Assembly: GCA_003990765.1 (NCBI GenBank)
Contig: RBNJ01000061.1
Coordinates: 1-45,468 of the forward strand
Direction of reading: 5' to 3'
Source: Jimgerdemannia flammicorona
Lineage: Eukaryota
DNA length: 45,468 nt
Numbering within the stretch: the first letter of the stretch is position 1; every line of letters begins with the position of its first letter. This document shows positions 2,415 to 45,468 of this stretch, piece after piece. The notes beneath the pieces were generated by a model. That model had not been told where the DNA came from, made no database searches, and was given only the letters and a program-made list of their open reading frames with translations. The position numbers and the translations under genes are program-made.

Positions 2415-2457
<43 letters not shown>

Positions 2458-17278: not shown

Positions 17279-17855
17279 TGAGGTGTTAAGTTAGAGCAAT
17301 TATCGTGAAGAAAATGTACATGTTGGATGCCCTGTACTAGAATTCGTGGCGTGATTGGATTGAAGATACTTAAATCCTATAAAATGTCAGTTAGTTTCTT
17401 GGCTCATCCACACGAACGTTTGTCGTTTGCATGCAATCTTCTAAAAATGAGATTGTGAGGAAAAAACATCGAAATAGTTACGCAAGAGAGCCTCAGGGCA
17501 TTTTATTTACGGCTCGAGAATCGGCAATCTCAGACGGACGTGTCGTTACCGTCATTTTATATTTCGACCATAGCATCACGTACGCCTACACATTTTGGCC
17601 GTGAAATTTTCACCCACGGCGAAGATCTCACTCTTGATGCGATAGTAGGAAAATGAGGAGAAGCCAGTTACATTGACTATGAGAGGGGGGTCATCATAAA
17701 TGCAAGGTCCCATATGTACCTAAGAAGTATAATACATACTGATATATGATTTTGGGTTGATGGTATTGAATATGATGTCTGGTACCAAATTTTGATACAA
17801 TGTGATGTATGATCTGGATTAGGCACAAATTGAGGAGATAGACATTTGATTGTAG

Positions 17856-19141
17856 TGTAATGTGCCAGTTCAATAGAGGCAAATTACAAGGTTGGGGGTT
17901 GATGTAGTTTGGCTTGAGCCCCCAGTTACTTTGTTAAAAAGCAACAAAATGTTCAATGATTTCTGGTATCCTTGTTAGTGTTTAGCAGTATAATAGTCAA
18001 GTCTAGATACAATGGTTGATTTTGGTGATTTCCTTATTGAGATGGTTCTTGGGAGTAGTGATGATTTCATATGACAGTCTCTGAGAGTTCCTTATATATG
18101 TGATTTCTGCATAATAATTATATGTAGCATAATGATCTCCAAAAGTAGATAATTTCTGCATGATGATCTCTATGAATAGATTTTCTTCTTAGGTAGTAGA
18201 TAATTTCTATATAATATAATGATTTTAGTGGCCATAACATGGATGATTTGGCAGTATTCCTTAATAAGTAGCAGACAACTTAGTTTGGTGTAGATTCTCC
18301 TGAATCAGCAGACTTTTTGAATAATTTAGATAATAGATAACTTGATAACTCAGATAGTAGATTCTTAAGCAAAGTTATATTAAAGACTGACTTTGTTTGT
18401 ACAGAGTTATGTCAAAGAACTGACTCTACTATAAAGTTGTATCAAAATAGACTAGTTTTGTGATAAGATTCCTATAGTGACTTTTCTGAAAATAGTAGAT
18501 AATGTGGATTCTTTCTAAATTGGTAGGCTTCTGAAATGATACAGATTCTCTTCTTGGTAAAGTTATATCAGAGACTGGCTTCATTTGTACAAAGTTACAT
18601 CAAGAGACTGGCTTCACTATAAAGTTGTATCAAATAGACTAGTTTTGTAGTAAGATAGATTTCTCTTAAAAATGACAGCTCTTTTTTTGAGCAGTAGATT
18701 TAGCTTTTCTTTAAGTGGTAGATTTCTTTTCAAGATAGTAAAGTTCTTTACTCAAACTTGGGTGGCAAATCTTCAAGCAATCTTTGTATTGAAAAGTAGA
18801 TCAGAGTGAGAAAAAGGAAGCTTTCTGTTTTTTTTTTTAATTTTCAGACTGAGGTTTATTTACTCTTATCTCTGAGGTATTTTATACAGATTGGTTACTA
18901 TCTGATTATTATATGGCTAACTATAGATTACTATATATAAGAAGAGGTGACCTTCATAGTCTCATAGTAACCTTTAAGATCTTAGAGTGATCTTCAAGAT
19001 CTTAGAATAACCTTCAAGATCTTAAAGGATTTATAATATTTTCTTTTTTACCTATCTGAGTTATTTATATAAGTTGGTATAGTAGAGCAATCCTGGTTGC
19101 CTGATATACTTAATATGATATTTTTCTACTGGCTTACTATA
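17856..19141 (-). repeat. 3' LTR of element A1
   Basis: Begins TGTAATG on the + strand, aligns with 24113-25411, and abuts the PPT-like tract. Contains 20-bp repeats (ACCTTCAAGATCTTAGAGTG-like) at ~18950-19025. Confidence 0.88.
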
Positions 19142-19961
19142 TCAGCCCCTACTAAAGAATGGTCTGTCTCCAGACTGTTCTTTAGTTATCATTTCATTAT
19201 TTATAGACATCTTTTTCTATAACTGAGTTGAGCTTTCTATAGTCTATACAGAGTCTCCATTCTCTTTTATTTAGTATAATAAGTATAGAGCTGACCCAGA
19301 GACTAGTAGAGGGTCAGATAACTTCATTGTCTAAGAGTTTTTAAATATATTCTTTTTTGAATATCTTTAAGTAATAGGATATTCTATAGATTTCTACTAG
19401 ATGGGTATTGTATTTCTTATATTTATACTATAATAATATAATAGATTATATAGCAGATTATTATAGTTGGTAGTAAAGATATCTTAATATTTGTAAAAGA
19501 GTTCTACTAGTTGTTACTATTACTGAAGTATCAATTCTTCTTCAATATTAGTAGAAGGCTTCTAGGTTACAGAGGAACCTTTTCTTTCTTCTAAAATCTT
19601 TTGCCATTTTTCAATAGATTTAACTTATTGACTTCTCTATAGATTCAGTTGAGATAGGACATCAGATGTCCTATAATAGTTCCTTTCAGTAAGATGATGC
19701 TTTTCTAGCTTTAGTTGATTACTCGGAAGTATACAGAATTCATCTTATTAAAGAATATATATTCTTTAATATTCAGATTCTTAATATCTTCATTGGGTTC
19801 AAAGAAGAGATTTCTTGGATCAGATGGTAAAATATTTCGAAAATAGTTTACTCTTCTGGTTCCAGAATAAGGTCCTTATATAGCTTGACTGATTGGTAAT
19901 ATATTTGCTGAGGAGCATTCTTCTTAAAGTAGTTAATCTGGAGGAGATGTACTTCTTTTCT

Positions 19962-20370
19962 GTCTGAGCTTTCAAATCCTTTGGTTTATCTTGCACCTTG
20001 GGTCAGCTTAGAGACCTCTTATAGCTGGGGAGTATCTCTCTGAAGATTGCTTGTATAATTTTTTATCTTCTATAGATTCAGTGCTATTTTATACTACTAT
20101 TATTCAAGATGACCATGATTTCACCTATGTATCCTGGGTCTATAATTCCTCCTTCTATAGTTATTTCTTGTCTGACAAGTTCAGACCTTGAGTTCAGCTA
20201 GATATAAGTTCCCTTAGATGACTATATAGCTAGTTCTATTTTAAGTATCATTGTTCTTTTAAGTTTAATAGATTTATTCTCTAAACTTTAAAGATTATAC
20301 TTTATATCTTTCTGATGAGCTTTGATCAGAGGTTTAGCCTTAAATATAGCAAGATATACTGGACAATATC
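19962..20370 (-). pseudogene. dUTPase domain of A1 (between protease and RT), decayed
   Basis: Reads AKPLIKAHQKD...LNSRSELVRQEITIEGGIIDPGYIGEIMVILNN...R*TKGFESSD, matching trimeric dUTPase motifs 2, 3 and 5. Confidence 0.85.
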
Positions 20371-23300
20371 TTTACTGAGTTCAGATTATCCTTAAACTGA
20401 GGCTTTATTAGAGATAAGTCTCTAGACTCTGAGATTGAGATATAGTTATCTGGCTTCAGTAGAGAGATCTTGGAGATAATTAATTCTTCTTTTTTTCTAT
20501 AGGATCTAGGACTTTCATGAAGTTGGTGGTATCCTCTATCTATCCTTAGTAGGTTATATGTCTAATGAGGGCTAGGATATCTTCTCTCAAATCATAGATC
20601 TTGAGCATCTTCTTTTTGATTTCTTGGCCTAATTTCTTCAGATCTGAGTTCTGTTGTCTCCTTTCTTTAATGTGTGAAAAATAATATCTTGGCTAAGATA
20701 AATCTTCTGATTTTGACAGTCTCAGCAGTCTGGATGTATTTTATAATTATAGTATTCCATTACTCAGAAATATAACTCTTAGTTATTGATCTCTTATTAT
20801 CTTTGAAATTAGTTTTCATCTCTATCATAAGTTGGAAAAAGAGTAGCTAAAAGCTGTACTTCTGTTCAGATAAAGTGGCCTGGTTTATTGGTACACTTTT
20901 TTAATATTGTAGTGATTTCTTAGAAGTTAATTATCTGAGTAATTGTAATTGGGGCCTCTGGCCTATAGGGTCTCTATCTTTTTTGTTAATCTAATAGATA
21001 GTACTGATAGCAGTAGTCTTGAGGAGAGTGAAAAACTATTTAGTACTGATATCTTTTTAGCTAAAAGTCTCTTTTCTGATATGTTTCTTATCTTGAGATA
21101 ATAGTGACTATACTTGGTCCTTCTTCAGTATTCCAAGAGCCATCATCTTCTAGTAGTATCTAATAAGAATTATCTTAGAGAATAAGTTCAGAGAGCTTCT
21201 CCTATTCAGAAACCTCTTGTTTAGAGGTTTTTTCTTTAGATGTTTCTTAATCCTAAATTGCTTGTACTTCTGCAACTTTGATCATAGGTGTCTTTGAAAT
21301 GTGTTTATATTTCTTCTTTCTTTTTCTATACTTAGAACAGACTATATCAATGAATTTCTTATTTCAATAATCTTGGAGAAGTATTTAGGATACTTGTATC
21401 TTTTGAGATAAGTGGGGCATTCTTTAATTTGTTCTACAATGGCTTCAATTATGATAGAGATGATATTTTTAGACCAAATATTGTCTTCTGGCCTATTGTC
21501 TACCAAGTTGATTTGAGAGTTAAGTCTGGGGTCATTTTCATCTTCATATTCTTCTTCTTCTATAGTGGATTCTTTACTACTAACATACTCTTTCTGGATA
21601 GTGATCTTTTTTTTTTCTTTAACTACTTATAGCTGGTCACCTTGATTCTATACTTCTTTCCTCTATAGTTGAATTTAAGCATCTATTGGCCAATATCAAT
21701 AACTGTATTCATTTTCTTCATCCAATTAATATTAAGAATTATGTCATAAATGATAGCTTTAGTGATAATAGCTTTTAGAATAGAAAACTGAATATATCTC
21801 AGAGAGATAGTGATGTTTTATACTTCTCCAAGAGGTTGAGTTTGGGCTCCATCTGTTACTATAATACTAAGGTTTAATGATCTATCAATAGGCTATTGGA
21901 GGGTGTCTAGAAATTATTTGGCAATAATACAGACAGCTGCTCCTATATTAATGAGAATTTTTGCCATTTGTTCTCTAATATCTCTATATAGATATGTGCT
22001 GATATATCTTTCTGCAGCCTGAATAGTAGTTAGGGCTAGTTCTTATTGGGGATTAGGACTCAGCCAGTACTGGATCTGATAGTTCTCAATAATTTATTCC
22101 AGACTCCAGTAGATATCAGTTGTAAAAACTACTAGAGAGAGACTTCTATCTTGGCTTCTTGAATCTTTTACCAGACTTCATTATAGATATCTCTGGACAT
22201 GGTCTTTGGGGTATACGTCTTCTTGGGCTTTAGAACAACAGACTCCTGTTCTTCTTACTCTATTTCTTTATCCTTTAAAGGTAGGTTTATTTATTTTGAG
22301 AACAAAAGGTAAGAAGGTATTTCCACTTGCTCTTTTTCATGTTCTTTGTCCTCTTTCTAGATAATTCTCCTACTGGTATTTCTGGATGATCTTTCTATGA
22401 GTCTCTTCCTTTTCTATACTAGATAAACTGTCTTTCTAATAATAACCTTGGCTTAAAATAGGTCTAGATCACTGTAATCTTCACTATTACTTTCTTCTTC
22501 AAAGTCTTCAACTGAGTGAGCTTCAGTCTTCTTATACTGGATTTTATTCTTTCAATTTAGTAGTTCTGAGTCTCTTTGGTCACCTTTTCTATTATTATAT
22601 TCTGTGATATAGTGTCCAAACTATCTATAGTAAAAGCATTGAACTTGAGCTCTATCTCAGACAGAATACTTTCTTTCTTCTTATAGCTGGTAGCTTCTAT
22701 TATTTCTGGATAGATAATCTTGATTTCTCATTAATATATATCCTCTGTTGTCATATGAGTAGTCCCAATTTTCTCATATAGTGAGTTTTTCAATTTGGCT
22801 AACCAATTGATCTAACTTGTAATTGAGATCTTAGATTTCATTTCTCTCATTCTTTTACTTCTTGGCTGGCTTTCCTTCTTCCAATTTTCCATGTTTTTAA
22901 AGGTGTTCTTGCAGAGTTTTGACCAAGATGTCTTCTTTATCATCCTTCTTGTCATAATTACTCTAGATAGTTTCTTGTCTGATATCAAAAAATCCTTAGG
23001 CTACATCAACTTGCTCTTTAGATCCTCTGATATCTAAAGTGCAGATATACTGGGTAATATTTGGAAGAATTCCATTCATAAAATTATTAGTCCTATGATG
23101 TCTTAGTTGGTGGTATTGAATCTGGCTATATATATTCTTTTTTAAATTCTGATAAAGAATATCCTAGATAATTCTCTGATATTCATATTTATTCCCATGA
23201 TTGATTCTTGAGCCTTGTGGTGGGATTTATTTTTTATATACTTCTCAATAAATTAGTGGATCATATATAGCTTCATATTCTGCTTTCTAGATTACTGTTA

Positions 23301-24112
23301 TATAGATGACTATTCTAAGGTCTGAATGTGCATCAATTCTTGCTTAGTTGAAAATTTCCCTAGCTGGTTCTCTGAGTTGGGCCTTATAAATGACAATTTT
23401 TCTTTCAGCAGAGAGATTCTTTAGAGCTGTAATTTCTTCCATTCTATTAAGGAATTCTCTTAAGTCTTTTTCTGGATATTCTGCAAAGGTTTGGCATTAG
23501 AGTAGCTATATTGTTATTACTGTTTTCTGATTCTAATTCTGGTTCTAATTCTGGTTCCAATTCTGGTTCTGATTCTGGTTCTGATTCTTCTTCTGAATTA
23601 TTACTAAAACTTGAGATACTTAAGTATCCTAAGAATGGTGTTGCTAGTCTTAAATGAGGTGTAATAGGTTTGGGTAATCTTGAAGAGGCTATTCTTAGTT
23701 CTTCTAGTTCTGTAATAGCTAGTTCTGATAGTGGTTTAATGAGAGAGACTGGTGGAACTTCTAAAGAAAATCAGGTCCATATATTGAGGTCTTTAAGTTT
23801 TTATATAAGTTTATTGAAGTTTCTAGTAAAGCTATCTATATTATCTGGTTTATCAGATTAATCTGGTGGTAAGTCTGTTGGTACTAACTGAGGATTCTAT
23901 ACTATACTAGCTTCTGTTTGAGATTCTTCTAATATAGGGTAGTTGGTAAGTCTTGAGATGATTATTTCTCTTTTTATTCAAATACTGGTAATAACTAGTT
24001 CTTCTATAATATTAGAGGTTGGTATTGTATCAAATATATCCTGTTTGACTTTAAGTTCTTATGAGTTAAAAAGTTATATAGATTTTAAAATCTTTCCAGT
24101 TGAGTCTCCAAA

Positions 24113-25411
24113 TATAATATACTAGCTCATAGAGGTAAATTACAAAATTGAGAGTTAGTGTAGTTTGACTTAAACCCTCAGTTACTTTGTTAAAAAGTAA
24201 CAAAATGTTCAATAATTTCTGATATTCTTATTGATATTTAATAGTATAATAGTTAAGTCTGAATATAATGGTTGATTCTGATAATTTTCTTATTTGAATA
24301 GTTTTTTGGAAGTAGTAATGATTTCATATAATAGTCTCTGAGTAATATGATAGATTTCTTATATATGTAATTTCTATATAATAATTGTGTATAATATGAT
24401 AATTTCCAAAAATAGGTAATTTCTATATAATGATCTCTATGTGTAGATTTTCTTCTTAAATAATAGATGATTTCTATATAGTATAATGATCTTAGTAACT
24501 ATGATATAGACAATTTGATAGTATTTCTTAATAAGTAGCAGACAACTTAGTTTGGTATGAATTCTTCTGAATCAGTGAGCTTCTTGAATAATTTGAATAA
24601 CAGATAACTTAATAACTCAGATAGCAGATTCTTGAGTAAAGTTACATTAAAGACTAACTTTATTTATATAGGATTATATCAAAGAACTGGCTTTACTGCA
24701 AAGTTACATTAAGATAGACTAGCTTTATAGCAATATTTCTATAGTAGACTTTTTTAAAAATAGTGGATAATATAGATTCTTCTTAAATTGATAAGTTTCA
24801 TAAATAATATAGATTCTCTTCTTAGTAAAGTTATATCAATAGACTAGCTTTATAGTAAGATGGACTTCTCTTGAAAATAGTGACTCTTTCTTAAGTGGCA
24901 GATTTACTCAAATGGTAGCTTTTTCTTATTGATTGGTTTCTCTTCAAGATAGTAAAGTTCTTTACTCAAACTTAAATAGTAAACCTTCAAGTAATCTTTA
25001 TATCAGAAAGTAGACTAGAGTGGAAAAAGAAAGCTTTCTACTTTTCTTTGACTTTTTAGACTGAGGTTTATTCACTTTTATCTCTGGGGTATTTTATATA
25101 GATTGGTTACTATCTGGTTACTATATGGCTAACTATAGATTATTATATATATATGAGAAGAAGTAACCTTCATAGTCTCAGAGTAATCTTTAAGATCTTA
25201 GAGTGACTTTTAAGATCTTAGAGTAATCTTCAAGATCTTAGAGTGACTTTTAGAGTTTGTAATATTTCCTTCTTTAGCTATTTAAGTTATTTATATAAGT
25301 TGGTACAGTAGGGCAATCTTGGTTATCTAGTATACTTGATATAGCATGTAGCTAAATTATAATAACTAATTCAGATAGTAACTTAGTATATTTTCCTGCT
25401 GACTTATTACA
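24113..25411 (-). repeat. 5' LTR of element A1
   Basis: Ends ..TTACA at 25411 and is separated from the PBS by AA. A more AT-shifted copy of 17856-19141. Confidence 0.88.
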
Positions 25412-26089
25412 GTAGTAATTATCTAAATCTGATCTCTAAATATAGTATAGCATATATTATAGTAGTAGTTACTAATTCAAAGATATGAAATAGATTTATA
25501 AATGTAAAATAACTCACTCTAAAGTCATAATTTAATTACTCTATAGCTAGTAGACTTATATAAATATATAATCTCAGTATTTAGAGTAAATAAATCCCAG
25601 ATTGAAATAGTTTAAAAGAAAAGAACTAAGTAGTCTATAGATAGATATATCTTTTAAACTCTCTATATTCTATAACTAACTCTAAGGAGTCAAAAATATA
25701 AAGAATTCAAAATAAAGAAATTCAATATATTTTCTAAGTTAAGTGTTTGCTATATTATAACTTATTTAAAAATTGTTATATATCTATAAGCCACTAGAAA
25801 TTCTGATGAAATTTTTAATGGAAATTTTTATAGAAATTCCTATAAAATTTCCAACTAGCAGTCATAGATACTGAATATAGTATAACTATATAGAGATAGT
25901 CTAAAGCACTATCTGATTTTTTTATCATCTGATTTTTTTATATAATTTTTTCATTCTATATTTAGAGATCCTTATGAGAATTCTTACATTTATTTATCTC
26001 TTTCTTAGATATATTATATATTTCTTTCTTTGTTTTTATACACTTCTAATTAAAACACCAGTTTATTCTTATATATTTTTTCAATATAG

Positions 26090-26500
26090 AGACCATTAAT
26101 CAAGACTCTGCATATGTATCTATAAGTCTCTAACTACTATTATTAGCTTTATTAAGGCAGAGGTCTAGAAAGAATACTGAGCTCCAGTCATCAAGAGAGT
26201 AGCCAATAGCCAGTTCAAGAATAAAGAGCTTAGTATTGAGTATATATCTCTCAAGACTATACTCAATATATAGTATAAGATATATAATAGACTTGATATA
26301 TCCTTTATTAGTATTAATAATTTGAAATAAAAGATCTAAAGAATACTCTTGAGTGACTAAAATTGAGTGGCTATAAAGTGAAAGAGTTTGAAGAACCCAA
26401 CTATTATAAATTTACATTTGTAGCTACTAAAGACTTAGATATACTTCAAAAATCTGATTATCTTACTCTTATAGACTTAATATATAAAATCAATAAATAC
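26090..26500 (+). mobile_element. Decayed Mutator-like (MULE) transposase fragment, truncated by the A2 3' LTR
   Basis: Translates ...FTFVATKDLDILQKSDYLTLIDLIYKINKY. Reverting C>T/G>A changes gives LTL(I/M)DSTHKTNKY, the first catalytic-Asp motif of fungal MULE transposases. Confidence 0.65.
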
Positions 26501-27647
26501 TGTAATATATATGCCTGACTCAATACAGAAAAATTACAAGATTGAAGGTTGATGTAGTTTGGCTTGAGCCCCCAGTTACTTTGTTAAAAGCAACAAAATT
26601 TTCTTAGTGTTTAGTGGTATAATTGTCAAAACTGGATATCTGTAAGTGATTTCCTTATTGAGATAGGTTCTTGGATATAGTAGTGATTTATATATAGTGC
26701 AGACATTCCTTATACATAATGGTCTGGCAATTTGGCAGTTCTCCTTATATAATTTCTGCATAATAATTATATTCTAAAAGTATGTAATTTCTGACTGATG
26801 TGATGATCTCTTTATATAGTATGATAATTTTAGTAGTATTCCATATTTGGCAGAGAACTCAATTTGGTACAGATTCTCTTGAATCAGTAGCTTACTGGGA
26901 ATAATACTGGTGCAGATTCTTCTCACTAGAAATAGATGGATAACTCAGATAGTGTGAGTAACTCAGATAACTCAGAAGGTAGATAATTCAATAACTTAGA
27001 TAACTCAGATGTTATGGACTCTTTCTGAATTAGCAGACTTCTTGAATAATAACTTAGATTCTTAGCAAATTTATGTCAAAGACTGGCTTTATTTGTATGA
27101 ACAGATTACTGCAAAGTTATTTTGTAGACTGACTTGTGCCAAGGTTCCTTAAGAGTAGGTTCTCTAGGAATTTGGGTTTCTCTTCAAAAGGCAGCAAAGC
27201 TCTTCCTTGAACTTGGCAGATTTCTTCAGGCTTATCTGGTAGATGAATCAAGGCTTTGTATCAGAAAGTGGACTAGAGTGGAAATGGAATAACAAAGCTT
27301 ACAATCTCCTAGTAGTAGCTGTAAAGTTTCTCTTGAAGTATGGTAGGCAGACTTGTCTTTTGCTTTGAGTTTAAATTTCAGACTGAGGTTTATTCACTCT
27401 TGTCTCTGGAGTATTTTATATATTATAGTTACTATCTGGTTACTATGTTGCTAATTATAGATTGCTATCTATGGTAGGTGTACTGATTCAGCACAGATAT
27501 GCAGGTTCAGCACAAATATACCTTATCTGATAGTCTGGCTATTTATACAGTTTTCTGCAGCAATAGTTACTATATCTGATTACTATGCTATGTATTCATA
27601 TCATCTAGCTAAGTTATAATTTGGGTGGTACATTTTGGTTTGTTACA
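26501..27647 (-). repeat. 3' LTR of A2
   Basis: TGTAAT...TGTTACA termini; preceded on the element strand by TTTAGTGGAGGCTGA; homologous to the other three family-A LTRs. Confidence 0.88.
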
Positions 27648-27885
27648 TCAGCCTCCACTAAAGAATGGTCTATCCTCAGACTGTTCTTTAGTTATATCCC
27701 AGTATGAATAAGCATCTTCTATATCAATATCTATTCCATCATCTTCATCATCTGTATCATGGTTACTCCATTCTAGGGATTCTTCTTCTTCTTCTAGGAA
27801 CAGGATTTTGATAGCATTAATGATGCTCAGGTAGGTGGCTAGGTTCATTCCTTATATATTATACTAGGAGAATTATACCTGTATC

Positions 27886-28309
27886 TAGTGCTCCCAATGA
27901 ATCAAATCAAATCAAATTTGGCCCAAACTCAATTCAATTCGATCAAATCAAGGGTCCAATTTGATTCAATTTGAATCGAATCAAAGCTCCAATTCAATTC
28001 AAAGTTTGATTCAAACCTTAATTTTCAAAATGTAATAACTTGACGAAAACTCATCAAAATTTAATGTATTTTAGCTTGTTAGATTTACCGTATTAATGTG
28101 ATTCTAACAAGCTAAAGTACATTAGATTTGGATGAGTTTACGCTGAGTTATTGCATTTTGAAATTTAGAGTTCGAATCAGACCCTCAATTCAATTCAACT
28201 TTTGATTTGATTCGAATTGATTTGAATTGAAAAATCCCCAATTCGATTCGACTCATTTAACCCTTAATTTGATTCAATTCAAATTGATTTGACTCATTTG
28301 GGAGCACTA
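27886..28309. mobile_element. hAT-superfamily MITE, 424 bp, near-palindromic
   Basis: TIRs TAGTGCTCCCAATGA / TCATTTGGGAGCACTA and a perfect 8-bp TSD CCTGTATC (27878-27885, 28310-28317). Subterminal AATCA/GATTC/AATTC pentamer arrays and an internal ~60-70 bp inverted repeat (28022-28083 vs 28103-28163). Confidence 0.93.
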
Positions 28310-29311
28310 CCTGTATCAGGGCTGCAGGGTTTCATTCATAAAAGGTATAGAGCCTGTCTGCAGTAGTTATATCTCTCCTTGATTGTTCTGTGGTATTTCT
28401 GATATATATTTATTCTGGGACTGGGAGGTTCTGCAATTGTTCTCCAATTGCATAATGGGCCTGAAGTTGATGGACCTGTAATAATCATCTGATCAGGATA
28501 AGATTCTCTTAATAAATCTAAATTCTCTGGAGGATATTTCCATTGACTTCTCAGAATTGGAGTAGGGGAACTAGCAGTGATTGAAATGAGCTAAGAACAA
28601 GAGTCTGAAGGTAGTTGTTAACTCTCTGATTTATAATATGGGAAAAGATATATCTTGAGATAATTGATATATACTGGTATCCTCAGGGTTTATCCATTCA
28701 TGCTTCTTAAATAGATATTAGTTCCTTTGATATTGTGTATAAGATAAAATCCTTCTCACTTGGGCTCCAACTTAGTGGCAAAGTTTGTTTCAATCATACT
28801 TCTCTAGACTAGTACTTGATCTTCAATCTTGATCTCCTAATCCTTCTGCTTCTAGTCATAGTACTTCTTTTATCTCTCTTAAGCTTTGGTAATCTGAACT
28901 TGAGCCTGATTATATAACTATTCTGTCTTCTTGAGGAGGTCTCTGAGATTCTCATAGTCAGCAGTTTTGGTTTTCTTAGCAAATATTATTTTGAATGACT
29001 TTTGTTTGGTGGAGACAGTAGGGGTATTCTGAATTTTCCATAGGATCTCAGATAAGCAGAGGTTCCAGTTGGTAGGATTGACTTAGGCAAGTCCTTTCTT
29101 GATGGTCTGGTTTATTCTTTCTGTCATACCATTGGTCTGAGGGTAGTATGATGTGGTCTATTTGAGATGGATCTTGTGAATTTGAGTATAACTTGTGACT
29201 ATATTATTGATGAATTCTGTGCCTCAGTCAGAGATAAGTTCTTCTGGGGGTCTATATCTGAGTGTGAGTCTATGGAGAAGGCCTATAATGGTTAAGATAT
29301 CTGTGATTTCC

Positions 29312-29713
29312 TGTAATGGTTCTAGTTTCTAAATGAGGAAGCAACTAAGTCTGGTAGTCCTAAGTAGCTTGAAGAGATACTAAGGATTCAAGTGTTCTCG
29401 AAGGATTTCTGGAAAAAAATATTCTGAGACTTTATTTATAAGAACAAGGGGATATTTATATAAGATCTGAAAGAAGAATCCGGAAGGATCTGAGAAATCA
29501 AAGGAAAATGCCAAGAGGAAAGTTCTTGGCAAAGATGATAAATGATGACAAATAAAGTTCTACAAGTTTCCAGGACATTCAGTGACTGACTAAATAAGTA
29601 CTAGTTAATGCTTGGTACCAAGAAAGGATTTCTAAGCATTCGGAAAGTACCAGAAGGTCATAGAATATTGAAGAAAGACAAAGAAAAGGAATAAACTATG
29701 CTAAAATATTACA
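29312..29713 (-). repeat. 3' LTR of element B
   Basis: About 95% identical to 34738-35139 by eye. Confidence 0.95.
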
Positions 29714-29726
29714 TCTCCCCCTCCTT
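29714..29726 (-). other. Polypurine tract of element B
   Basis: AAGGAGGGGGAGA immediately before the 3' LTR on the - strand. Confidence 0.9.
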
Positions 29727-30026
29727 AAGAATCAACATCCTTGTTGAATTCTCAAAGTTACACATGATAAACAATAAGACTAAAAGAAACTTCAAATTAA
29801 ATATACTGACTCATTGGCAAGGATTGGCCATCCTTATATAAGGCGAGGGCCAAAGTATCATCTTGATCAGATGAGAACTAGTTCAAACCTCATTGGTTGC
29901 AGAATTTATAGGGTTCTCCTATATCTCTTACTTCTGATGCTATATCCCTTAGAGAGCCCTGATGCATAATGTACCTGATCAGTACAGTAGGTTGTCTACT
30001 ATGTAAGGGGAGAATCTCACAGGCAG

Positions 30027-34669: not shown

Positions 34670-34726
34670 AGTGTTGTGACTGATATCTTGAGAGGTATCT
34701 TGATAAGGCGAGGTGTAACTTCACCA

Positions 34727-34735
34727 CTGCTACCA
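34727..34735 (-). other. Primer-binding site of element B (tRNA-iMet-like)
   Basis: TGGTAGCAG, 2 nt after the 5' LTR. Confidence 0.8.
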
Positions 34736-34737
34736 AG

Positions 34738-35139
34738 TGTAATGGTTCTAGTTTCTAAATAAGGAAGCAACTAAGTCTGGTAGTCCTAAGTAGCTTGAAG
34801 AGATACTAAGAATTCAAGTATTCTTGAAGGATTTCTGAGAGAAAATATTCTGAGACTTTATTCATGAGAACAAGGGGATATTTATACAAGATCTGAAAGA
34901 AGGATCTGGAAGGATCTGAGAAATCAAAGGAAAATGCCAAGAGGAAAGTTCTTGGCAAAGATGACAAATAATGACAAATAAAGTTCTACAAGTTTCCAGG
35001 ACATTCAGTGACTGTCTAAATAAGTACTAGTTAATGCTTGGTGCCAAGAAAGGATTTCTAAGCATTCGGAAAGTACCAGAAGGTCATAGAATATTGAAGA
35101 AAGACAAAGAAAAGGAATAAACTACACTAAAATGTTACA
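34738..35139 (-). repeat. 5' LTR of element B
   Basis: Direct repeat of 29312-29713, followed by the TSD. Confidence 0.95.
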
Positions 35140-37337
35140 TTTCCATTGAGAAAGCCTCAGGCCATTTGGTCAGATGTTCCATGAATATAAGGATATACTT
35201 GTTTCTTCCTAATATAACTGATAGAGGTCTAATTATATCTACTCTCTATCTCTGAAAAATATTGTCTGGTAGTACAATTGGTTGCAGTTATGCTTGGTAG
35301 TTCTTTCTTTCTTGATACTTCTGACAGATGTCATATTTCCTGAGTATGTCCCAGACCTATATTCTGAGGTTGGGCTAATGTTGGTATATTGTTTGCAGCT
35401 TTTCTTCTATGTTTGCCTGTCCTTGGTAGACTTTCTGATGTTCTTTTTGGATGAGATCTTCTTATGCCTTAGTGGTCTGAGAAACTTCCTTTAGGGTATA
35501 GTTCCTTGGGACACCCTTCTTCTGGTTTATTGGAGCTGATGGAAAAGTATATTAATATTGTTGTAAGCTTTCTCTGCTTTATGAATAATGGTGATTTTGT
35601 AATCTTGGAGGATAAGAATCCAATAGGCTAGAATTCTGGTAGATTCTTTATAGTTGAATAGCCATTTGAGGGCTACATAGTCTGTGATCAGGGTGAACCT
35701 TTTTCCAATAAGGTAATACTTGAATAAGGTGATCACCTATATAACTGTAAGATATTTCAGTTTGGTACTACCATAGTTCATCTGCTGCTAATTGGTAGCT
35801 TAACTTATATAAGCTATCATATGATGTTATTGGTCAGAACCTTCTTGGGCTAGAAATACTCCTAGGCTATCTTTGGAGGCAACTGTATATAAGATGAATA
35901 GCTTCTATAGATTGGGGCATATAAGGATTGGTGTTGTAGTCATGCAGTTCTTGAGTTCCTTGAAGGCTTTCTCCTGTAATTCTGTTTACTTATAAGGTAC
36001 TTCTTTCTTGAGAAGGACTCAGATTGGAGCAGTGATTTGGGCAAAGTCTTTAATAAATCTTCTGTAGTAGGATACTAGCATCAAGAATGATAGTGTTTCC
36101 TTTGGGTCTTGGGTACTGGCCAATTGTTGATCTTCTCAGTTTTCTTTGGATCTGTATGGGTTTTTTCTTTTGAAACTATAAATCCAAGGAATTTAAGTTT
36201 CTGTTTTCCAAAATAGCATTTCTTAGCATTGAGTCTCAGGTGGTTCTTATGGGTAAGCTTGAAGAATTCTTCTAGATGTATAGATATTCTTCAAAATTTG
36301 CTGAATAGATGTTGGAATTATCTATATATACAATTAGGCAGTGGTGGATCAGGAGGGCATAAACTGAATTCATCATCCTCTAGAAAGTGGGGGGTATATT
36401 GCAAAGTCCAAAGAGTATTCAGAGGTATTCAAACAGTTTTCCTAAAGCAAGAAAAGCTGTCTTTTGAATATCCTTAGAGTTTATGGGGATCTTGTAGAAT
36501 TCTGTGAAGAGGTCCATATTGCTGAAGTATCTGATATCTTATAACTGATCTAAGAGGTCATTGATTCTGGGCAAAGGATAAGCATCCTTTTCAGTAAATG
36601 AATTGAGTTTTCTGTAATCTATGTAGAGTCTTCATCCTTCTTTCTTTGGTATAATAAGTATAAGGCTGGCCCAAGGGCTGGTTGAGGGTTGGATGACTCC
36701 ATTGTCTAAGAGTTCTTGAATATACTCCTTTTTAAATGTCTTTAGATAATGAGGTATTCTATAGAGTTTCTGCCAAATGAGTGTTGCATTTCCTGTATTT
36801 ATGCTGTAGTGATATGATGAGCTATATAATAGGTTGCCATAATCAGTAGTGAAGATATCTTGATATTTGTTGAGAAGTTCTACTAGTTGTTGCTATTACT
36901 GGAGTATCAATTCTTCTCCAATATTAGTAGAAGGCTTTACTGTCTCCTGGGTCGCAGAGGGGTCTTTTTTTTCTTCTGGAATCTTTTGCCATTTCCTGAT
37001 AAGTTTAATTCATAAACTTCTCTATAGGCTTAGTTGAGAAAAGGCACCAGATATCCTATGATGGTTCCTTTTGGCAAGATAATGGTTTTCCAACTTTGGT
37101 TGATTACACTGAATTCATCTTATCAAGGAATGTGTATTCTTCTATATCTAGGTATGAGATATCTTCATTGGGTTTAAAGAAGAGGTTTCTGGGATCAGGT
37201 GGTGCAAAGTTTTCGAAGGTGGTTTGTTCTCCAGGCTCCAGAATGAGGTTCTTGTGCAGTTTGACTGACTGGCAGTATACTTGCTGGGGAATATTCTTCT
37301 TGAGGTAGTTGACTTAAAGGAGATATACTTTCTTCTT

Positions 37338-37745
37338 ATCTGAACTTCCAAATCCTTTGGTTTGTCTTGTTCCTTCAGTTAGTTTAGGAACTTCTTATAA
37401 TTATGGGGTCTTGACCTTCATGAAGACTGCTTGGATAATCTTCTGTCCTCTAATGATTTGGTACTATTCTGTACTACTATTGAATAGGATGATCTTGATT
37501 TTGCCTGTATATCCTAGATCAATGGTTCCTCCTTCTATAATTATTCTTTATCTGGTAAGTCCAGACCTTGAGGTCAGTTGGATATAAGTTCCTTGGGATA
37601 GCTGCATAGCTAGTTTAGTTCTGATCATGAATGTTTTTTCAGGCTTGATAGATTCATCCTCTAGACTGTAAAGATCATATCCTATATCTTCTGGGTGAGC
37701 TTTGGTTGAAGGTTTGGCCTTGGAATATAACAGGGCATACTGGGC
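37338..37745 (-). pseudogene. dUTPase domain of A2
   Basis: Reads AKPSTKAHPEDIGYDLYS...LTSRSGL...EGGTIDLGYTGKIKII...GQKIIQAVF...RQTKGFGSSD, with motifs 1-5 and several nonsense codons. Confidence 0.92.
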
Positions 37746-40130
37746 AATATCTTTGCTGAAGCTCTACTAGCAGAGAGCCTCTAGGCTCTAAGGTTGAGGT
37801 GTAGCCATCTGGCTCCAGTAGAGGGATCTCAGAGATAATTGATTTCTCTTTTTTCTATAGGGTCTAGGGCTTCTATGAAGTTGGTAGCATCTTTTATCTA
37901 TTCTTGGTAGGTTATATATCTGATGAGAGTTAGGATGTCTTCTTCTAAATCATAGATCTTAAGAGTCCTTCTTTCTGGCTTCTTGGTCTGGCTTTTTTAG
38001 ATCTGGCCTCTGTTATCTCCTCTTTTCAAGATATGGATCACAACATTATAACTGAGGTAAATCTTCTGGTATCTACAGTCTCAACAGTCTGAGTATAGGT
38101 AGATGCTGACATATCTTTCAGCTGCCTGAACAGGGATAGGAACTGGTTCTTGCTGTAGGATTGGGACTCAGCCAGTGCTAGACCTGGTGGTTCTCAGCAA
38201 TTTATTTTGGACTCCAGCTGGTATCAGTTGCAAGAACTACAGGAGGGGGACTTCTATCTTGGCCTCTTGAATCTTCTGCCAGGCTTCATTGTAAATGTCT
38301 CTAGATATAGTCTTCAGAGTGTACTTCTTCTTGGGCTTTGGAGTGGCAGGTTCCTGTTCTTCTTATTCCATTTCTTTATTTTCTAGTAGTAACTCATTTG
38401 TCTTAGGAACAAAAGGTGAGGGGGTTCAGAGAGGTGTTTCTACATGTTTCTCCTCATGTTCTTCATCTTCTTCTTGGATGATTCTTCTGCTGATGTTCCT
38501 GGATGGCCTTTCTACAGATCTCTTCCTCTTTTCTGCTGAGTAGACTGTCTTTCAGGTGGTAACCTTGGTAGAGTACAAGTCTAGGTCACTATAGTCTTCA
38601 CTGTTACTTACTTTCTTGAAATCTTCAATAGGATGGGCTTCAGTCTTCTTGTACTGAGTGTCATTTCTTTGGTTTGATGGTCCTGAGTCCCTTCGGTCAC
38701 TTCTTTTGTTGTCACATTTAGTGGCATAGTGCCCAAATTGTCCATAGTGAAAACATTGGACTTGGGCTCTGTCTCAGACAGGATACCTTCTTTCTTCTTG
38801 CTGGTAATTCCTGTTATCTCTTGGTGGATAACCTTAGCTCCTCTGTAGTGGGTATTCCCTGCTGTCTTGGTAGCCCCAATTTTTACATATGGTAAGTTTT
38901 TCAATCTGTCCAATCAATCAGTCCAACTTGGAGCTGAGGTCTTGGATTTCACTTCTGTCCTTCTTTCCTTCCTTGGCTGGCCTTCTTTCTTCAGATTTTT
39001 CTTTTCCTTGAAGGAGTCCTTGTAGGGCTTTGACCAGAATGTCTTCTTTATCTTCTTTCTTCTCATGATCACTCCAGGTAGTCTCTTGTCTGATATCAAA
39101 GAATCCTTGGACTGCATCTACTTGCTCTTTGGACCTTCTGATGCCTAGAGTGTGGACATGTTGGGCAATGTTTGGAGGAATTCCATTCATGAAGGTCATT
39201 GGACCTATAATGTCCTAGTTGATGGCATTGAACCCAGTAGTATGCATTCTCTTCTGGATTCTTGTGAAGAAGGCTCTGGGTAATTCTCCAAGATTCATCT
39301 TTATCCCTATGATAGATTCTTGAGCCTTGTGGTGGGTTTCATTTCCTGCATACTTTTCAATGAGCTAGTGGACCATGGCCACATATTCTAGCTCATCAGA
39401 CATTGCTGCTTATATCTGTCTTGCCAGTTCTAAATCTTGGTTACCTACTGTTTGATGGAAAATTCCTCTGGCTGGTTCTCTGAGCTGAGCCTTGTAGATG
39501 GCGATTTTTCTTTTATCTGAGAGGTTTCTTAGGGCTGCGATTCCTTCAATTCCATCAAGAAATTCTCTGGGGTCTTCTTCTGGATATCTTGCAAAGGTTG
39601 GCAATGAGATGGCCATTTCATTGTCACTTTCTTCTGATTCCAGTTCTGGTCCAGATTCTGATTCTGATTTACTTTCTGAGCTGTCACTGGAAATGGAGGT
39701 ACTTGGGTATCCTGAGGATGGTGTTCTGGGCCTTAGACAAAATAGAATGGGCCTAGGTATTCTTGTAGGAGCTACTTCAGATTCTGCAAGGAGTTGTAGT
39801 AAAGGTTCTATTGGGGAAATTAGTGGGATGGGTATGGGGTGTCTGGCTGTAAGATCTCAGGCTTATATAATAAGATCTTCTAGTTCTTGTACAAGTTCTT
39901 CAAAATCTCCAGCAGGGCCATCTGTATTGTCTGATTGATCTGGTTGGGGATTTTGGCCTGTACTGCCTCCTGCTGGATAGTCAGCAAGTCTTGATGTGAT
40001 TACTTCTCTTCCTGTCCAAATGCTAGTGATAACTGGTTCTCCTATAGTAGCAGAAATTAGTATTGTATCAAATATATCCAGTTTGACTGTGGGTTCTTGT
40101 GAGCTGAAAAGTTACATTGATTTGAAATCT

Positions 40131-40147
40131 TCCCAGTTGAGCCCCCA
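40131..40147 (-). other. Primer-binding site of A2 (tRNA-Pro-like)
   Basis: TGGGGGCTCAACTGGGA, 2 nt after the 5' LTR. It matches the tRNA-Pro PBS TGGGGGCTCGTCCGGGA allowing two CpG-decay changes and one mismatch. Confidence 0.75.
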
Positions 40148-40149
40148 AA

Positions 40150-41462
40150 TATAATATACTCAGCTCAATAGAGGCAAATTACAAGGTTGGGGATTGATGT
40201 AGTTTGGCTTGAGCCCCCAGTTACTTTGTCAAAAAGCAACAAAATGTTCTAAGATTCCTGAGGTCCTTGGTGTTTAGTGGTATAATAGTCAAAGCTGGAT
40301 ATCTGCAAGTGATTTGTGTGTCAATTTCCTAATTGGGATGGTTCTCTGGGTATAGTAGCGATTCATGTGTGTGAATGGGTTTCCTTCTTGGGTCAACTGA
40401 GAATGGCAGAATTTATATATAGCACAAGCAGTTTCCTTCTTGAGTAGCAGGTGATTTCTTTGTATAGTATGATGATCTCCTTGTGCATGATGGTCTGGCA
40501 ATTTAGCAGTTCTCCTTATGCAATTTCTGTATGATGATCTTGTGTAGCATAATAATCTTTGTGTAGTATGACAGGTTTCCAAAAGTATGCAATTTCTGAC
40601 AAATGACTCAATTTGGCTCACTGAGAACAATGGATAACTCAGATGGCTCTTCTGAGAATACAGATGACTAGAAAATGGTAGATGATACAGATTCTCCTGA
40701 ATTGGTGGGTTTCTAGAGAATAACTCAGATGGTGCAGATTCTTCCTGAATCAGCTTCAACTGGAAATACAAACAACAGGCAGCGAATTCTTTGGAAAATA
40801 TAACTAATAGCTTGAAAAGGGTCTCTTGGCAAAGTTGCATTAAAGACTGGCTTTATTTGCATGATGGATCACTGTGAAGTTGCATCAGAAACTGGCTTGT
40901 GCAAGGCAGCTTTTTCTGAGAATGCAGATAACTTAGAAATGGCAGCTTATTTCTTAAATGGCAGATTACTCAAAAGGTGGCAAAGTTCTCCTTGAACTTA
41001 GGTGGCAAATCTTCAGACTTATCTGGCGAGTGAACCAATAATAATAATTCCAAAGACAGCAAAGTTCTTCCTTAAACTTAGGTGGCAAACTTGAATTCTT
41101 CAGACTTATCTGGCAAGCAAATCAATCAGTCTTTGTATTGGAAAGTAGAACAGAGTGGGGAAAAGAGACCAATGCTCAATCTTTAGAGGCTTCTTTAATT
41201 TGTTTCAACTTTTTGGACTGAGGTTTATTCACTCTTATCTCTGAGATAATTTATATATTGTGGTTGCTATCTGGTTACTATGTGGCTAACTATAGATCTG
41301 CTATTTATGGCAGGTGTACAGAGTCTGTATAGGTAAACAGACTCTATCTGGTATGTTTAGCTAATTATGCAGTTTCTGTAGCAATGTTTGCTGGTTACTA
41401 TGCTGTTTGTTCACATCATCTAGCTAAGGTATGATTCAGGTGGTATGTCTTGGTTTGTCACA
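40150..41462 (-). repeat. 5' LTR of A2
   Basis: Ends ..TTTGTCACA at 41462. Shares the U3-side sequence type with 26501-27647 but with many indels. Confidence 0.88.
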
Positions 41463-43077
41463 CTATGCTAACTTCAAAGGTAAGTAAAATAACTTCTATA
41501 TCTAGAACAGTAGTTAAAATTCCAACAAAGATATCTCTAGCACCTATACCAGTACTAGCACAGTCTATATATATATTAATGAGGCTATCAGAGTAAGAAT
41601 TATAGAAATTATAGATAAGAATGATAAAGAAGATATCTCTATAAAGGGCAAAAAGAAGTATAGATCAAGGCTGAATAGTAAAATTCAAGTAGATTTAGGA
41701 GATTATTAGGATCTATCTAAGATATTCTATTGTAATAGCAAATATTATATAAACTATATCTATAAGTATGTCTATATAGTAATAACTAGTGAGCTAGTAA
41801 ACCTATAATGAAGCCATTTATTCAGATAATAAGAAAAAGTAGAAAAAGGCTATAAATGAGAAGTATAGTTTACTCATTAAGAATGATATATAAGATTTAA
41901 TCTCTCTTTTAATAAATTGATAAGCAATAGAATCTCACTGAGTATATAAAATTAAATATAATAGTAATAGTAGTATAGAGCAGTATAAAGTCTGATTTGT
42001 AATAAAAAGGTATTCACAAGACTTTAATATTAACTATTATGAGACCTTCTCTTTAATATTCAAGCTTACTTTACTTAGAATACTTCTTATAATCAGAGCC
42101 AAATATGACTATAAAATCTACTAAATAGATATGTATCAAAACAGTATTCCTAAATAGAGATGTAGATACCAAACTATATATATATTAACCATAAGGATAT
42201 AAACTATACAATAATAAGTAAAAGGAACTTATATATAAATTACATAAAGATCTCTATAGCATCAAATAAGTAACAAGATTGTGGAACTGAAAAATTGATA
42301 AATATCTTATAGAAGATAATAAATTCAAATATTGTGAAGTAGATTCATACATATATACTCATCATATATTCTCAGAAATAATATATCTAGGAATTTGAAT
42401 TGATAATATCATTTTAGTCAAAATGATAAGTAAAATTAATAAAGTAAAGACAGTGTTATATAAAGAGTTCAAAATGATGAATATATATAAGTGATATATC
42501 TTTTCTTTTAAAGATATCTATTATATATAATAGAAGCATATATACTATATACTTGAGCCAAAGAATCTACATTTAGACTATATTTAAATAATTTGATATA
42601 AGCAAATACAAACCTATTGGAATCTCTATAGAGATATCTATGAGGCTAAAGAAGTTTAGTGATACTATATCCAAAACTATATCTAGAACTAATGATATTC
42701 TCTATTAGTAGGTAGTGAGAACACTCATATATCTTATATTTGGAATAAGATCTGATATATTATATATAGTCAACAAAGTAGCATAATACTTATTCTGCTA
42801 TGAGAATATATATATTAGATAACAATTAAGTGTACATTAAAGATATGATATACTATATATTCAGTTTGGACAGCAATAATAAAGAATAAAGCAGGAGCAC
42901 TATAAGGTTATCTAATATATGTGATATTAATTAAATCAGTGACCTGGATAATAGATAGTCTATAACTAGATATCTTTTTAAAATTAACAAAGAAGTCATT
43001 TTATAGCAAATGTGCAAGTAATCTTTAGTGATAATATCATCTATATAAGTAGAGTACCAAGTATTATCTATAGTGAC
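41463..43077 (+). mobile_element. Decayed Ty1/Copia pol fragment (RT and start of RNase H)
   Basis: Reads TYNEAI...KAINEKYSLLIKNDI*DL...*VYKIK...YKV*FVIKRYSQDFNINYYETFS, KTVFLN, DLYSIK*VTRLWN, GI*IDNI and ..SDLDNR*SITRYLF..VEYQVLS. These are Copia motifs (YKAR.V.KGYSQ..GIDY.ETFSP, LYGLKQ, VDD, D.RSTTGY) altered by transitions. Confidence 0.85.
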
Positions 43078-45275
43078 TAGTACTTCTAATAAATTAAATC
43101 AAATCAAATTAGAGTCAAACTCAATTTGATTTAAATATTTTAAATTGAATTGAGCATCAATTCAATTCAATTTAATTCAACTTGAATCAAGTGCTAATTC
43201 AATTCAATTCAAATCAAATTAAGTTATAATTTGAATCAAGTTACAATTTAAATCTAAATATAGTAATTCACATATGCAGTTTAATTCACAACAATATATA
43301 CTCTCTCAAAGTAATCAAGTATATCCAATGTACTTTTTATACCACTATCTATAGAGAATACTATAATAACAGCCTCAATATCAGATATAGCTTCAACAAG
43401 TGTAGTTACAAGTGCAGTCTCATTATAGTCTGAGAAAGAAAAAGAAAAAGTACAAGAATGCTCTGGTATTTGAAAAGAGTTTACAAAGGAGCATAAGGAA
43501 AATAGAGATGTTCAAATCAAATATAATCACTATAAAGTATCATATAAGACTATTGGTAGTTCAATAATGAATTTGTGGGTGTATTTTGACAAATATTATA
43601 AGAGTCATCAAGAAGGAGGAGGGATAGAGTTATTTTTTTCATACATAAGTATATTTTTATATAACTTATCTGCTTTGTTTTTTTTTTTTGGTTTTTTTCT
43701 TATTAATTTATTGTTACTTTATATTATTTGAAATAGCCAAAATTCTCCATATTATTATTTTGAAAAAAGCTTGTTTGCTGGATAATCCATGATAGCTAGC
43801 CTTTTATAGTTATTGAGAATTTGGAGCTAAAAGATCTCTTTTATCTTCTGAAACTAGACATTACTATTTCTTCTACTGAAACTATATGAAATAAAATTAA
43901 ACTGGTCTTTAAACAGAACTATAATACTGTCAAAATTATGCTATAGGTAAGATCTAATATTTTAATATTGAATACTAATTTGAATATTTCTAAGTTGAAT
44001 ATCTATTTAAATTAATCTTATTTCAATTTAATTTATTCAAAAATAGAATATACTAGATTGAATATCCTTCACTGTTGATATATGGATATTACCAAATATA
44101 TATATATTTCTTGAAATTAATATATATTGGATCTGTCAGAATTGGCAACTCAACTGTATATTAATTGATTTTGTCAAGCTATCAAGATCTCATTTAGATA
44201 AAAATCTTGCTGATATCTTTGAAAGATATATTTGAGATTTTAGTATACAGACAAAGATACATAGAGAGTGAGTCTTAAGGTCAGATTTTTAAAAAAGGTC
44301 AGGATTTTTGAAAAAGATTGGAATTTTCAAAAAAGGTTGGGATTTTTAAAAAGATCAGGATTTTCAAAAAAAAGGTCAGGATTTTTAAAAAAACTGTTAT
44401 CTTATATTTCAAATTATTAATTTTTTACTCTAGATATTGGCTATAATAACAGATAATATATCCAACAACAATACATTTTTTCAAGCAATCAGAATAGAGT
44501 TTGATACTGACCTCAACTATCAGTCAATATAATATATTCACTGTCTAGCTCATATCATTAATCTGACTGCTCAGGCCTTTTTAGTCTATATGAAGGCTGA
44601 TAATGATAGAGAAATAATGTCAAGACTCCAGATAAGTATTATTAAGATCTGGTCATCACTATAGTATTTTGAGTGATTTAAAGTGCAATATAAAGCTTTT
44701 GAAATCAGTGATCCAAAAGAACTTATTTTGGATATTAAGACTTAGTCAAACTTAACATATTTTATGATTGAATAGGCCTTAGAATTATTAGAGGTAAGCT
44801 TTATATTATTATATTATATTATATTTATTAATAAATTAATTTTTATTAATAGCCCTTAACCTCAACAGTTATAGCTAATAAAGATTTGCAAAAATATATC
44901 ATTGAAGATGAATATACTTGGCAGATGCTAAAAGATATCATTTCTGTTCTAAAGAGCTTTCAAAAAGTAACAAATCTTGTAGCTTAGTATAAATATATAA
45001 TGATTTATGCAGCTATTCTGATTTACAACTTTCTACTGAATATATTAGAGGATAATAACAAAGATATTGACAAAGACAGGAGAGCCAGATACCATTCATT
45101 GGGCAATAATAGCAGCTATTAATAAGTTGAAGACATACTATTCAATGACAGACAGTCTTTATTATATTGGTACTAGTAAGTAATTTCAAAATTTATTTGG
45201 TACTAAAGATAGCATATATCTATTTCAAAATTCAAAATTTGCTTGATTGGTTGGTTACTATAAATCTATTTCAAA

Positions 45276-45319
<44 letters not shown>

Positions 45320-45468
45320 GAATGAAACCAGTTCTTAATTCTAGGATTAAACTAGAATATTATTCATCTATAACAAAAACTATGCCCCTCCATCTGGATC
45401 AGTTTATTATATAAATTCCGAAGTAGATGATACTGATACTACAATTGATTTTTTTTTTTTTTTTTTTT
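43078..45468 (+). mobile_element. Decayed hAT DNA transposon with intron-containing transposase; runs off the window end
   Basis: The left end TAGTACTTCTAATAAATTAAATCAAATCAAATT is a transition-mutated version of the MITE terminus. It has a decayed BED finger (~43460-43600), ISFTVDIW..PN, ITTDNISNN, CLAHIINL and LILDIKT*SNLTYFMIE*AL. GT..AG introns start near 43650, 43947, 44268, 44793 and 45177. Confidence 0.88.
44278..44393. repeat. ~20-bp tandem repeat (AGGTCAGGATTTTTAAAAAA-like, about 6 copies) inside a transposase intron
   Basis: Directly visible tandem units between donor GTGAGT and acceptor CTAG (~44433). Confidence 0.85.

Follow-up and report, generated by a model that had tools for sequence, protein, structure and literature searches.

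Canonical repeat-induced point mutation (RIP) leaves strand-coordinated clusters of changes that arise from single events. A survey of 1,239 genomes (Badet and Croll, PMC12543289) places RIP-like signatures, in its accessible text, in ascomycete classes, and enters Jimgerdemannia flammicorona as no_rip. The DIM2 methyltransferase of Neurospora crassa (PDB entry 9BAP) methylates all cytosine contexts, as stated in the available portion of PMC11315935, and in Phycomyces blakesleeanus, which has DIM2 and DNMT1, transposon 5-methylcytosine (5mC) stands at 3.4% in CG, 0.9% in CHH and 0.5% in CHG according to the accessible part of PMC11258239. Here we compare with these systems a stretch of J. flammicorona DNA (contig RBNJ01000061.1), the whole of which, 45,468 nucleotides, is called the window. 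In this early-diverging mycorrhizal fungus the window holds a ∼27-kb nest of dead transposons eroded almost solely by C-to-T change: CpG is hit most, then CpA and CpC, and the erosion weakens at the border with genes. The pattern resembles the trace of a DNA methylation aimed at transposons more than it does classical RIP. A CG deficiency in lower fungi was reportedly described by Clutterbuck in 2017; for Endogonales, searches of the openly accessible literature gave no report of the present pattern.

The evidence comes chiefly from long terminal repeats (LTRs) of two Ty3/Gypsy families, A and B. Sister LTRs are identical at insertion, so the differences between them arose in the chromosome. 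Of 20 stretches taken from the genome assembly (231 Mb in 35,354 contigs, the window being contig C61), 11 contain a B LTR pair, which makes 12 with the pair in the window. Nine have a matching target site duplication (TSD), one of these with a single C/T mismatch; L127, L133 and L134 were dropped because their TSDs do not match. The nine verified pairs hold 190 transitions and 3 transversions in 3,616 bp, distributed per site as CpG 67/112 (0.60), CpA 69/340 (0.20), CpC 28/203 (0.14) and CpT 20/580 (0.03), which therefore reflects neither CpG-only decay nor CpA-specific RIP. Four young family A pairs give 0.60, 0.22, 0.18 and 0.03 for the same contexts, and the older A1 pair of the window gives 1.0, 0.63, 0.67 and 0.20. 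The LTR alignments are gap-free; the tests on 14 pairs described below exclude those of family A whose LTRs are partial (C639, C1736, C1471, C3379 and A2 of the window).

Within the window, the LTRs of element B differ at 19 of 402 sites, 18 of them by transition (nine at CpA, four at CpG, three at CpC, one at CpT and one unassigned), just as a first-pass annotation of the letters had counted by eye. Per opportunity this amounts to 9/43 for CpA, 4/8 for CpG, 3/26 for CpC and 1/65 for CpT. The CpA excess claimed in that annotation survives normalisation for dinucleotide availability against CpT (p=0.001) and against background but barely against CpC (p=0.51 in this pair; 88/447 vs 37/271, p=0.042, over 12 pairs), and the per-site rate at CpG is three times that at CpA. 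The hallmark of ascomycete RIP that it had recognised is thus absent, CpG standing far above CpA, CpA being roughly equal to CpC, and CpT coming last; its argument that CpG-only decay would not produce the pattern is upheld, and the mutation is confined to repeats. Transitions outnumber transversions 18:1 in the B LTRs and 200:13 in the A1 LTRs, compared with 35:21 (1.7) in a duplicated gene-rich stretch.

The same spectrum is found across genome copies. Three families were aligned, the B LTR, a miniature inverted-repeat transposable element (MITE) and the A gag region, each represented by its 30 best copies out of 40 scored, a choice that favours less mutated ones; CpA was counted only at sites where no copy carries a following G. 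Site means are 0.374 for CpG (176 sites), 0.118 for CpA (358), 0.102 for CpC (365) and 0.049 for CpT (391), with CpA exceeding CpC (p=0.003) and, far more clearly, CpT (p=6e-34). The MITE family, with at least 40 genomic copies, has the same mutation spectrum as the retroelements. Rare alleles in B LTR copies are directional: 118/3776 for non-CpG C>T against 17/7429 for T>C, with 18 transversions. In the A family change is more frequent with a pyrimidine at +2, both at CpA (CAC 0.20 and CAT 0.15 vs CAA 0.09 and CAG 0.11) and at CpC (CCT 0.15 and CCC 0.13 vs CCA 0.08 and CCG 0.07), and CAT and CAC are depleted in old elements. The three-family copies show no consistent preference for the 5-prime base.

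An exon of the host RPB2 gene matches a protein labelled J. flammicorona at 100% identity; Endogone sp. follows with 93%, Basidiobolus with 82% and Mucorales with no more than 78%, which places the host in Endogonales, Mucoromycota, and bears out the earlier claim that it lies outside Dikarya. The window falls into two parts: 907 CpG occur in 1-17850 and 50 in 17851-45468 (27.6 kb), and the observed/expected ratio (o/e) of CpG is 1.02 in 1-17640 as against 0-0.12 in 17856-45468, MITE aside. Taking the usual RIP index thresholds to be a product of at least 1.15 and a substrate of at most 0.75, one of 54 one-kilobase segments passes both, and the composite index is above 0 in 10 of the 54. Since only one segment passes, the survey missed the pattern. 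The features are as follows.

1-17640, unstranded: gene-rich, unmutated control region, including two F-box/LRR-type genes; CpG o/e 1.02, GC 0.45
17641-17855, unstranded: CpG-free strip outside the first LTR; last CpG at 17640; 4 other matches in the genome, 74-84%
17856-25411, minus strand: Ty3/Gypsy element A1, heavily mutated; TSD GTAG; GC 0.30, 3 CpG
17856-19141, minus strand: left LTR of A1, adjoining gene-rich DNA; outer ∼0.5 kb spared relative to the sister LTR
24113-25411, minus strand: right LTR of A1, within the transposon island; 121 derived changes vs 62 in the left LTR
25416-26495, unstranded: very old relic, GC 0.23, no CpG; MULE label unconfirmed
26501-41462, minus strand: Ty3/Gypsy element A2 (family A), host to the MITE and B; reverse transcriptase YIDN at 36328; dUTPase relic at 37554-37721
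27886-28309, unstranded: MITE of 424 bp inside A2; terminal inverted repeat TAGTGCTCCCAA, 8-bp TSD CCTGTATC
29312-35139, minus strand: Ty3/Gypsy element B inside A2, the youngest LTR element here; TSD TTTCC; pieces of zf-CCHC, dUTPase, protease, reverse transcriptase, RNaseH and integrase
29312-29713, minus strand: left LTR of B, 402 bp
34738-35139, minus strand: right LTR of B, 402 bp; differs from the left LTR at 19 sites, 18 by transition
41463-43050, plus strand: Copia reverse transcriptase relic; RVT_2 E 3.8e-9; GC 0.24, no CpG, many stops
43051-45468, unstranded: old relics of DNA transposons and of MITE-like elements, GC 0.25

The YIDD>YIDN change in the reverse transcriptase of A2 (36328), the change of a DTG-type motif to NIG in the A1 protease (21952) and the LTR-end change, in which the terminal TGTAAT reads TATAAT at 24113, are all present as first described, and B retains YIDD and DSG. 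Severity had been proposed to follow age. GC and CpG o/e agree, declining from B (0.41 and 0.12) through A2 (0.34-0.39 and 0-0.03) and A1 (0.30 and 0.02) to the oldest relics (0.23-0.25 and 0); the MITE, proposed as an element that had kept its CpG, has lost it at 27 of 73 family-variable CpG positions. The supposed nesting needed revision too: A1 and A2 are neighbours, and the sole nested elements are B and the MITE, both within A2. Among the element labels, Copia is supported by Pfam, and the hAT and MULE pieces have no Pfam match; a HCLAHIINL stretch in 43051-45468 resembles a hAT motif.

A1 lacks most of the reverse transcriptase-RNaseH-integrase region and A2 lacks ∼1.25 kb holding the protease. 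A2 may be chimeric, because its two LTRs share no TSD and align poorly, only in parts. A dUTPase occurs in both Ty3/Gypsy families, at 33383-33613 in B, placed between the zinc knuckle and the protease, and at 37554-37721 in A, upstream of the reverse transcriptase; the two are ∼30% identical. The gene-rich part holds F-box/LRR-type open reading frames at 4328-5794, with an F-box match, and 12061-12846; the first is single copy at the DNA level and of no use as a host multigene control. It also holds a duplicated intergenic element (2150-2803 and 14152-14906) with a T-run/A-run junction, CpG-normal and with a transition/transversion count of 35/21, a repeat that escapes heavy mutation, and a short repeated unit (9224-9461) that matches many contigs of one sequencing run. 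A sequencing run compared with 1-20000, to gauge differences between strains in unique DNA, gave mostly diverged or paralogous contigs and was uninformative. The strip at 17641-17855 is partly a low-copy repeat, and there is therefore no clear leakage of the mutation into unique DNA.

Both strands are affected: plus-strand C>T and G>A rates are 0.028 and 0.039 in B, 0.029 and 0.016 in the MITE and 0.083 and 0.119 in A. APOBEC-type editing of retroelement cDNA is ruled out, as both strands are changed, sister LTRs differ and the MITE has the same spectrum. Transition and transversion densities correlate across 14 LTR pairs (rho 0.79, p=7e-4). Per-copy loads of CpG and non-CpG changes correlate in the three families (rho 0.72, 0.47 and 0.77), and within families B and A the non-CpG load is independent of transversions (rho -0.07 and -0.21).

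The load also appears to depend on the chromosomal neighbourhood, with a taper over ∼0.5 kb at gene borders (three edges, two elements). Counted by sixths, derived changes in the left and right LTRs of A1 are 6/36, 12/29, 19/24, 13/13, 10/17 and 14/14. Gene conversion as the cause of the spared A1 edge was considered and rejected: each of the first three sixths has only one transversion, with no excess. A family A element on contig C455 lies in gene-rich DNA and has CpG-normal sequence to either side; the outer and inner halves of its LTRs carry 7 vs 21 and 6 vs 13 changes. The load of this element is low (CpG 35/122, 0.29; CpA 5/156, 0.03; 3 transversions) compared with island copies on C32 (CpG 72/86, CpA 47/239, 4 transversions) and C501 (43/56, 47/218, 4 transversions), where rates reach 0.77-0.84 at CpG and 0.20-0.22 at CpA with similar transversion counts. 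The C455 LTRs (L142, L143) retain CpG (o/e ∼0.8) and the internal region is CpG-poor (0.02-0.12). Pooled, LTR halves that border genes are the less mutated (47 vs 115 derived changes), and seven island-flanked halves give 259 vs 247 (Fisher p=8e-7; the gene-bordering set is three edges from two elements). Of ten further contigs, C457 alone has a complete TSD-verified pair, flanked by island DNA. None of 30 MITE copies lies in gene-rich DNA on both sides, and no correlation with the flanks appears among them.

The genome encodes candidate writers of a methyl mark. PF00145 matches the genome at four sites; two are DNMT2 exons, and the others are genes of the DNMT1 superfamily, P0122 (C8187) and P0124 (C3657); a third gene, on C11271, was found with P0124 as query (loci L039, L040 and L111). 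The best PDB match of P0122 is N. crassa DIM2 (9BAP, E 4e-47, vs 6e-31 for DNMT1), and its closest named homologue is from Phycomyces nitens. P0124 scores 9e-35 with N. crassa DIM2 and 1e-32 with DNMT1, and the C11271 gene scores 590 against P0122 and 103 against DNMT1. In an eight-row tree P0122 and P0124 group with DIM-2-like rows from Phycomyces nitens, Basidiobolus and ascomycetes, apart from two DNMT1 rows, P0124 being strongly diverged on a long branch. All three proteins have PCQ and ENV motifs and BAH-type regions, and not the EQT/EET of RID. The DNA-intercalating R1175 of DIM2 is seemingly not conserved in the P0122 and P0124 alignments, which would be compatible with a different context preference. 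A search with P0123, of a kind that does miss genes, brings up no DNMT1, its hits being the DIM-2-like genes and a BAH-PHD gene that is unrelated; CpG is nonetheless almost wholly lost. No RID/Masc1 occurs among the genes from the PF00145, P0124 and P0123 searches, a RID query itself not being used, and a representative-library search with one exon returns P0124 and an unrelated match only. An HP1-like gene with chromo and chromoshadow domains lies on C3142 (L214), flanked by retroelement relics.

These observations are probably, by some way short of certainly, best explained by heterochromatin-limited 5mC that DIM-2 paralogues deposit and that is cumulatively converted to T. Transposon islands would be packaged as HP1-type heterochromatin, where an expanded set of DIM-2-like enzymes would methylate every context, with CG ahead of CA and CC, and CT least, preferring a pyrimidine at +2. 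Once an element has inserted, methylated C on either strand of the chromosomal DNA would then become T, accumulating with time and in proportion to the methylation of each context and locus; the mark, and hence mutation, would taper over ∼0.5 kb at gene-rich borders. The context order, the parallel increase in CpG and non-CpG changes and the border taper read like a methylation map. We infer 5mC with such a profile, DIM-2-like enzymes as its likely writers, and as converter a deamination that may be chemical and poorly repaired, or enzyme-assisted. The first-pass annotation had offered an uncharacterised repeat-directed mutation system or heavy non-CpG methylation; the pair stands, and the second, as DIM-2-type non-CpG methylation, fits better.

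Several points weigh against cumulative decay of DIM-2-type methylation. The edge effect comes from two elements only, one of which, on C455, could owe its low load just to a younger age. A CpG-rich flank on one side does not spare a MITE (L051, 28/73) or a B LTR (L029, 9/22 and 7/127), and the halves of island LTRs scatter both ways (52/38, 36/51). Sparing of CHG, as in Phycomyces, is seen for CCG (p=0.03) and not for CAG or CTG. Non-CpG loads are overdispersed (2.7, 1.3 and 3.6), and one of 14 pairs, that of C32, has a strand bias (p=0.007, among 14 tests). CpA differences reach 0.20 per site compared with 0.0008 for transversions (upper 95% bound 0.0024), that is ∼240 times the transversion rate, or at least ∼80 times at the upper bound. 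The mammalian CpG effect is about tenfold, and the CpA excess here is far larger. Missing T:G repair was tried as an explanation and set aside, as a gene fragment for a TDG/MUG-type glycosylase is present at a contig end (C34337, L213). Given rates so extreme and the presence of that gene, plain chemistry may not suffice, and an active enzyme-assisted step may be involved unless replication errors are unusually rare. Finally, DIM-2-dependent RIP prefers the linker between repeats, according to the available text of 10.1101/115501, and a load that is higher in inner than in outer halves fits this too.

An active form of the idea is that Endogonales run a RID-independent mutator, in which an expanded, diverged group of DIM-2 paralogues itself converts heterochromatic C to T with a CG > CA, CC > CT and +2-pyrimidine code; we put this forward tentatively, as less probable than not.

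A RIP-like defence would recognise homology in the sexual stage and mutate actively, through a DIM-2 branch or a putative RID-like enzyme, with a context broader than that of Neurospora, in weak rounds that accumulate. The extreme ratio of transitions to transversions in the verified pairs suits it, as do the overdispersed loads and the tendency of sister LTRs to match in load (rho 0.61, p=0.08), and the portion of 10.1101/115501 cited above indicates that DIM-2 alone can mediate RIP. RID could also have escaped the searches, because the assembly is fragmented and PF00145 missed one of the three known genes. Nevertheless, the top target is CpG; in the accessible parts of the respective sources, DIM-2 RIP and the Dim2 mutation of Zymoseptoria both favour CpA strongly. 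Strand runs are not evident among all changes (405 of 828 neighbours of the same type vs 388 ± 12 after shuffling, p=0.085, though several rounds could blur runs) or among private ones (102 of 202 vs 101 expected). All 18 LTRs of the nine B pairs carry 3-19 changes, none being untouched or saturated, and copies 92-98% alike persist in number. Perfectly homologous LTR halves are spared beside genes, and the three enzymes have ENV motifs and BAH-type regions in place of the RID signature. Such a defence is accordingly rather unlikely here.

Less probable still is that heterochromatic repeats recruit a specialised deaminase of cytosine or 5mC, or some oxidising enzyme, which sets the context while methyltransferases only silence. 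The rate far above background would suit such an activity, the preference for CAY over CAR and CCY over CCR could be an enzyme's, and a two-step model is discussed for RIP in the available text of 10.1101/115501; cDNA editing is excluded as described, and the 5-prime preference is inconsistent. Ordinary CpG decay with AT-biased drift or alignment artefact, and no special non-CpG process, is very improbable: CpG is indeed the strongest context, the standard indices are weak and the survey lists the species as no_rip, but the non-CpG changes of B LTR copies are strongly directional, CpA was counted only at sites free of a following G in every copy, the LTR alignments are gap-free, and the gene-rich duplicate has a transition/transversion ratio of only 1.7.

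On the favoured account of methylation by DIM-2 paralogues and its alternatives, either DIM-2-type methylation by itself can wear transposons down tens to hundreds of times faster than transversions do, or Mucoromycota have a RIP-like mutator. Both options bear on how C5-methyltransferases yield C>T in RIP and on when RIP arose. An active DIM-2 mutator, if it exists, would mean that mutagenic genome defence predates Dikarya and is invisible to CpA-based RIP surveys. Three candidate enzymes emerge from the analysis, together with predictions for their context code and for a taper in space, and LTR dating in this lineage will overestimate ages unless based on transversions alone.

Compared with canonical RIP, the locus shares the excess of C:G>T:A and its confinement to repeats (190 vs 3), and lacks the CpA preference, the strand clusters and the high RIP indices. 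In the accessible parts of 10.1101/115501 and PMC6709928, the RIP of N. crassa (with RID and with DIM-5/HP1/DIM-2 branches) resembles it in repeat-confined C:G>T:A change, high transition/transversion ratio, stops and AT enrichment, and DIM-2 and HP1 homologues are present here; the locus differs in its lack of CpA specificity and of clear strand runs, its graded loads, its persisting similar copies and the absence of RID from searches in which no RID query was used. The Dim2-dependent methylation and mitotic C>T mutation of transposons in Zymoseptoria tritici (PMC8016269) is alike, as far as its available text goes, in a DIM-2-type enzyme, in C>T change confined to repeats that are methylated there and would be here, and, on the favoured reading, in its independence from a sexual stage. 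There, more than 98% of changes fall at CA and CG is spared, whereas here CG leads, CC is about equal to CA, the host belongs to Mucoromycota and the link to an enzyme is conjectural; mutation of the CA-only type with CG spared is not found.

Outside Ascomycota, the TpCpG hypermutation of Pucciniomycotina (PMC3318451, in its accessible text) is likewise a CpG-centred C>T change of transposons outside Pezizomycotina, and differs from the large non-CpG share here. Zoophthora radicans of Entomophthorales (PMC11105155) provides a RIP-like claim outside Dikarya that rests, in the available text, on dinucleotide indices with caveats; here sister LTRs and multi-copy alignments carry the case and the indices are weak. 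Phycomyces blakesleeanus is of the same phylum, has DIM2 and has repeat-limited methylation in the order CG > CHH > CHG, with a CG/non-CG ratio that resembles the spectrum at this locus (PMC11258239 and PMC7862722, in the parts accessible). It has one DIM2 together with DNMT1, and those parts do not report hypermutation, whereas three DIM-2-like genes are found here and DNMT1 is not. Since its RIP-like outcome fails the CpA, index and strand tests, the pattern is better classed as a variant of methyltransferase-linked repeat mutation than as RIP.

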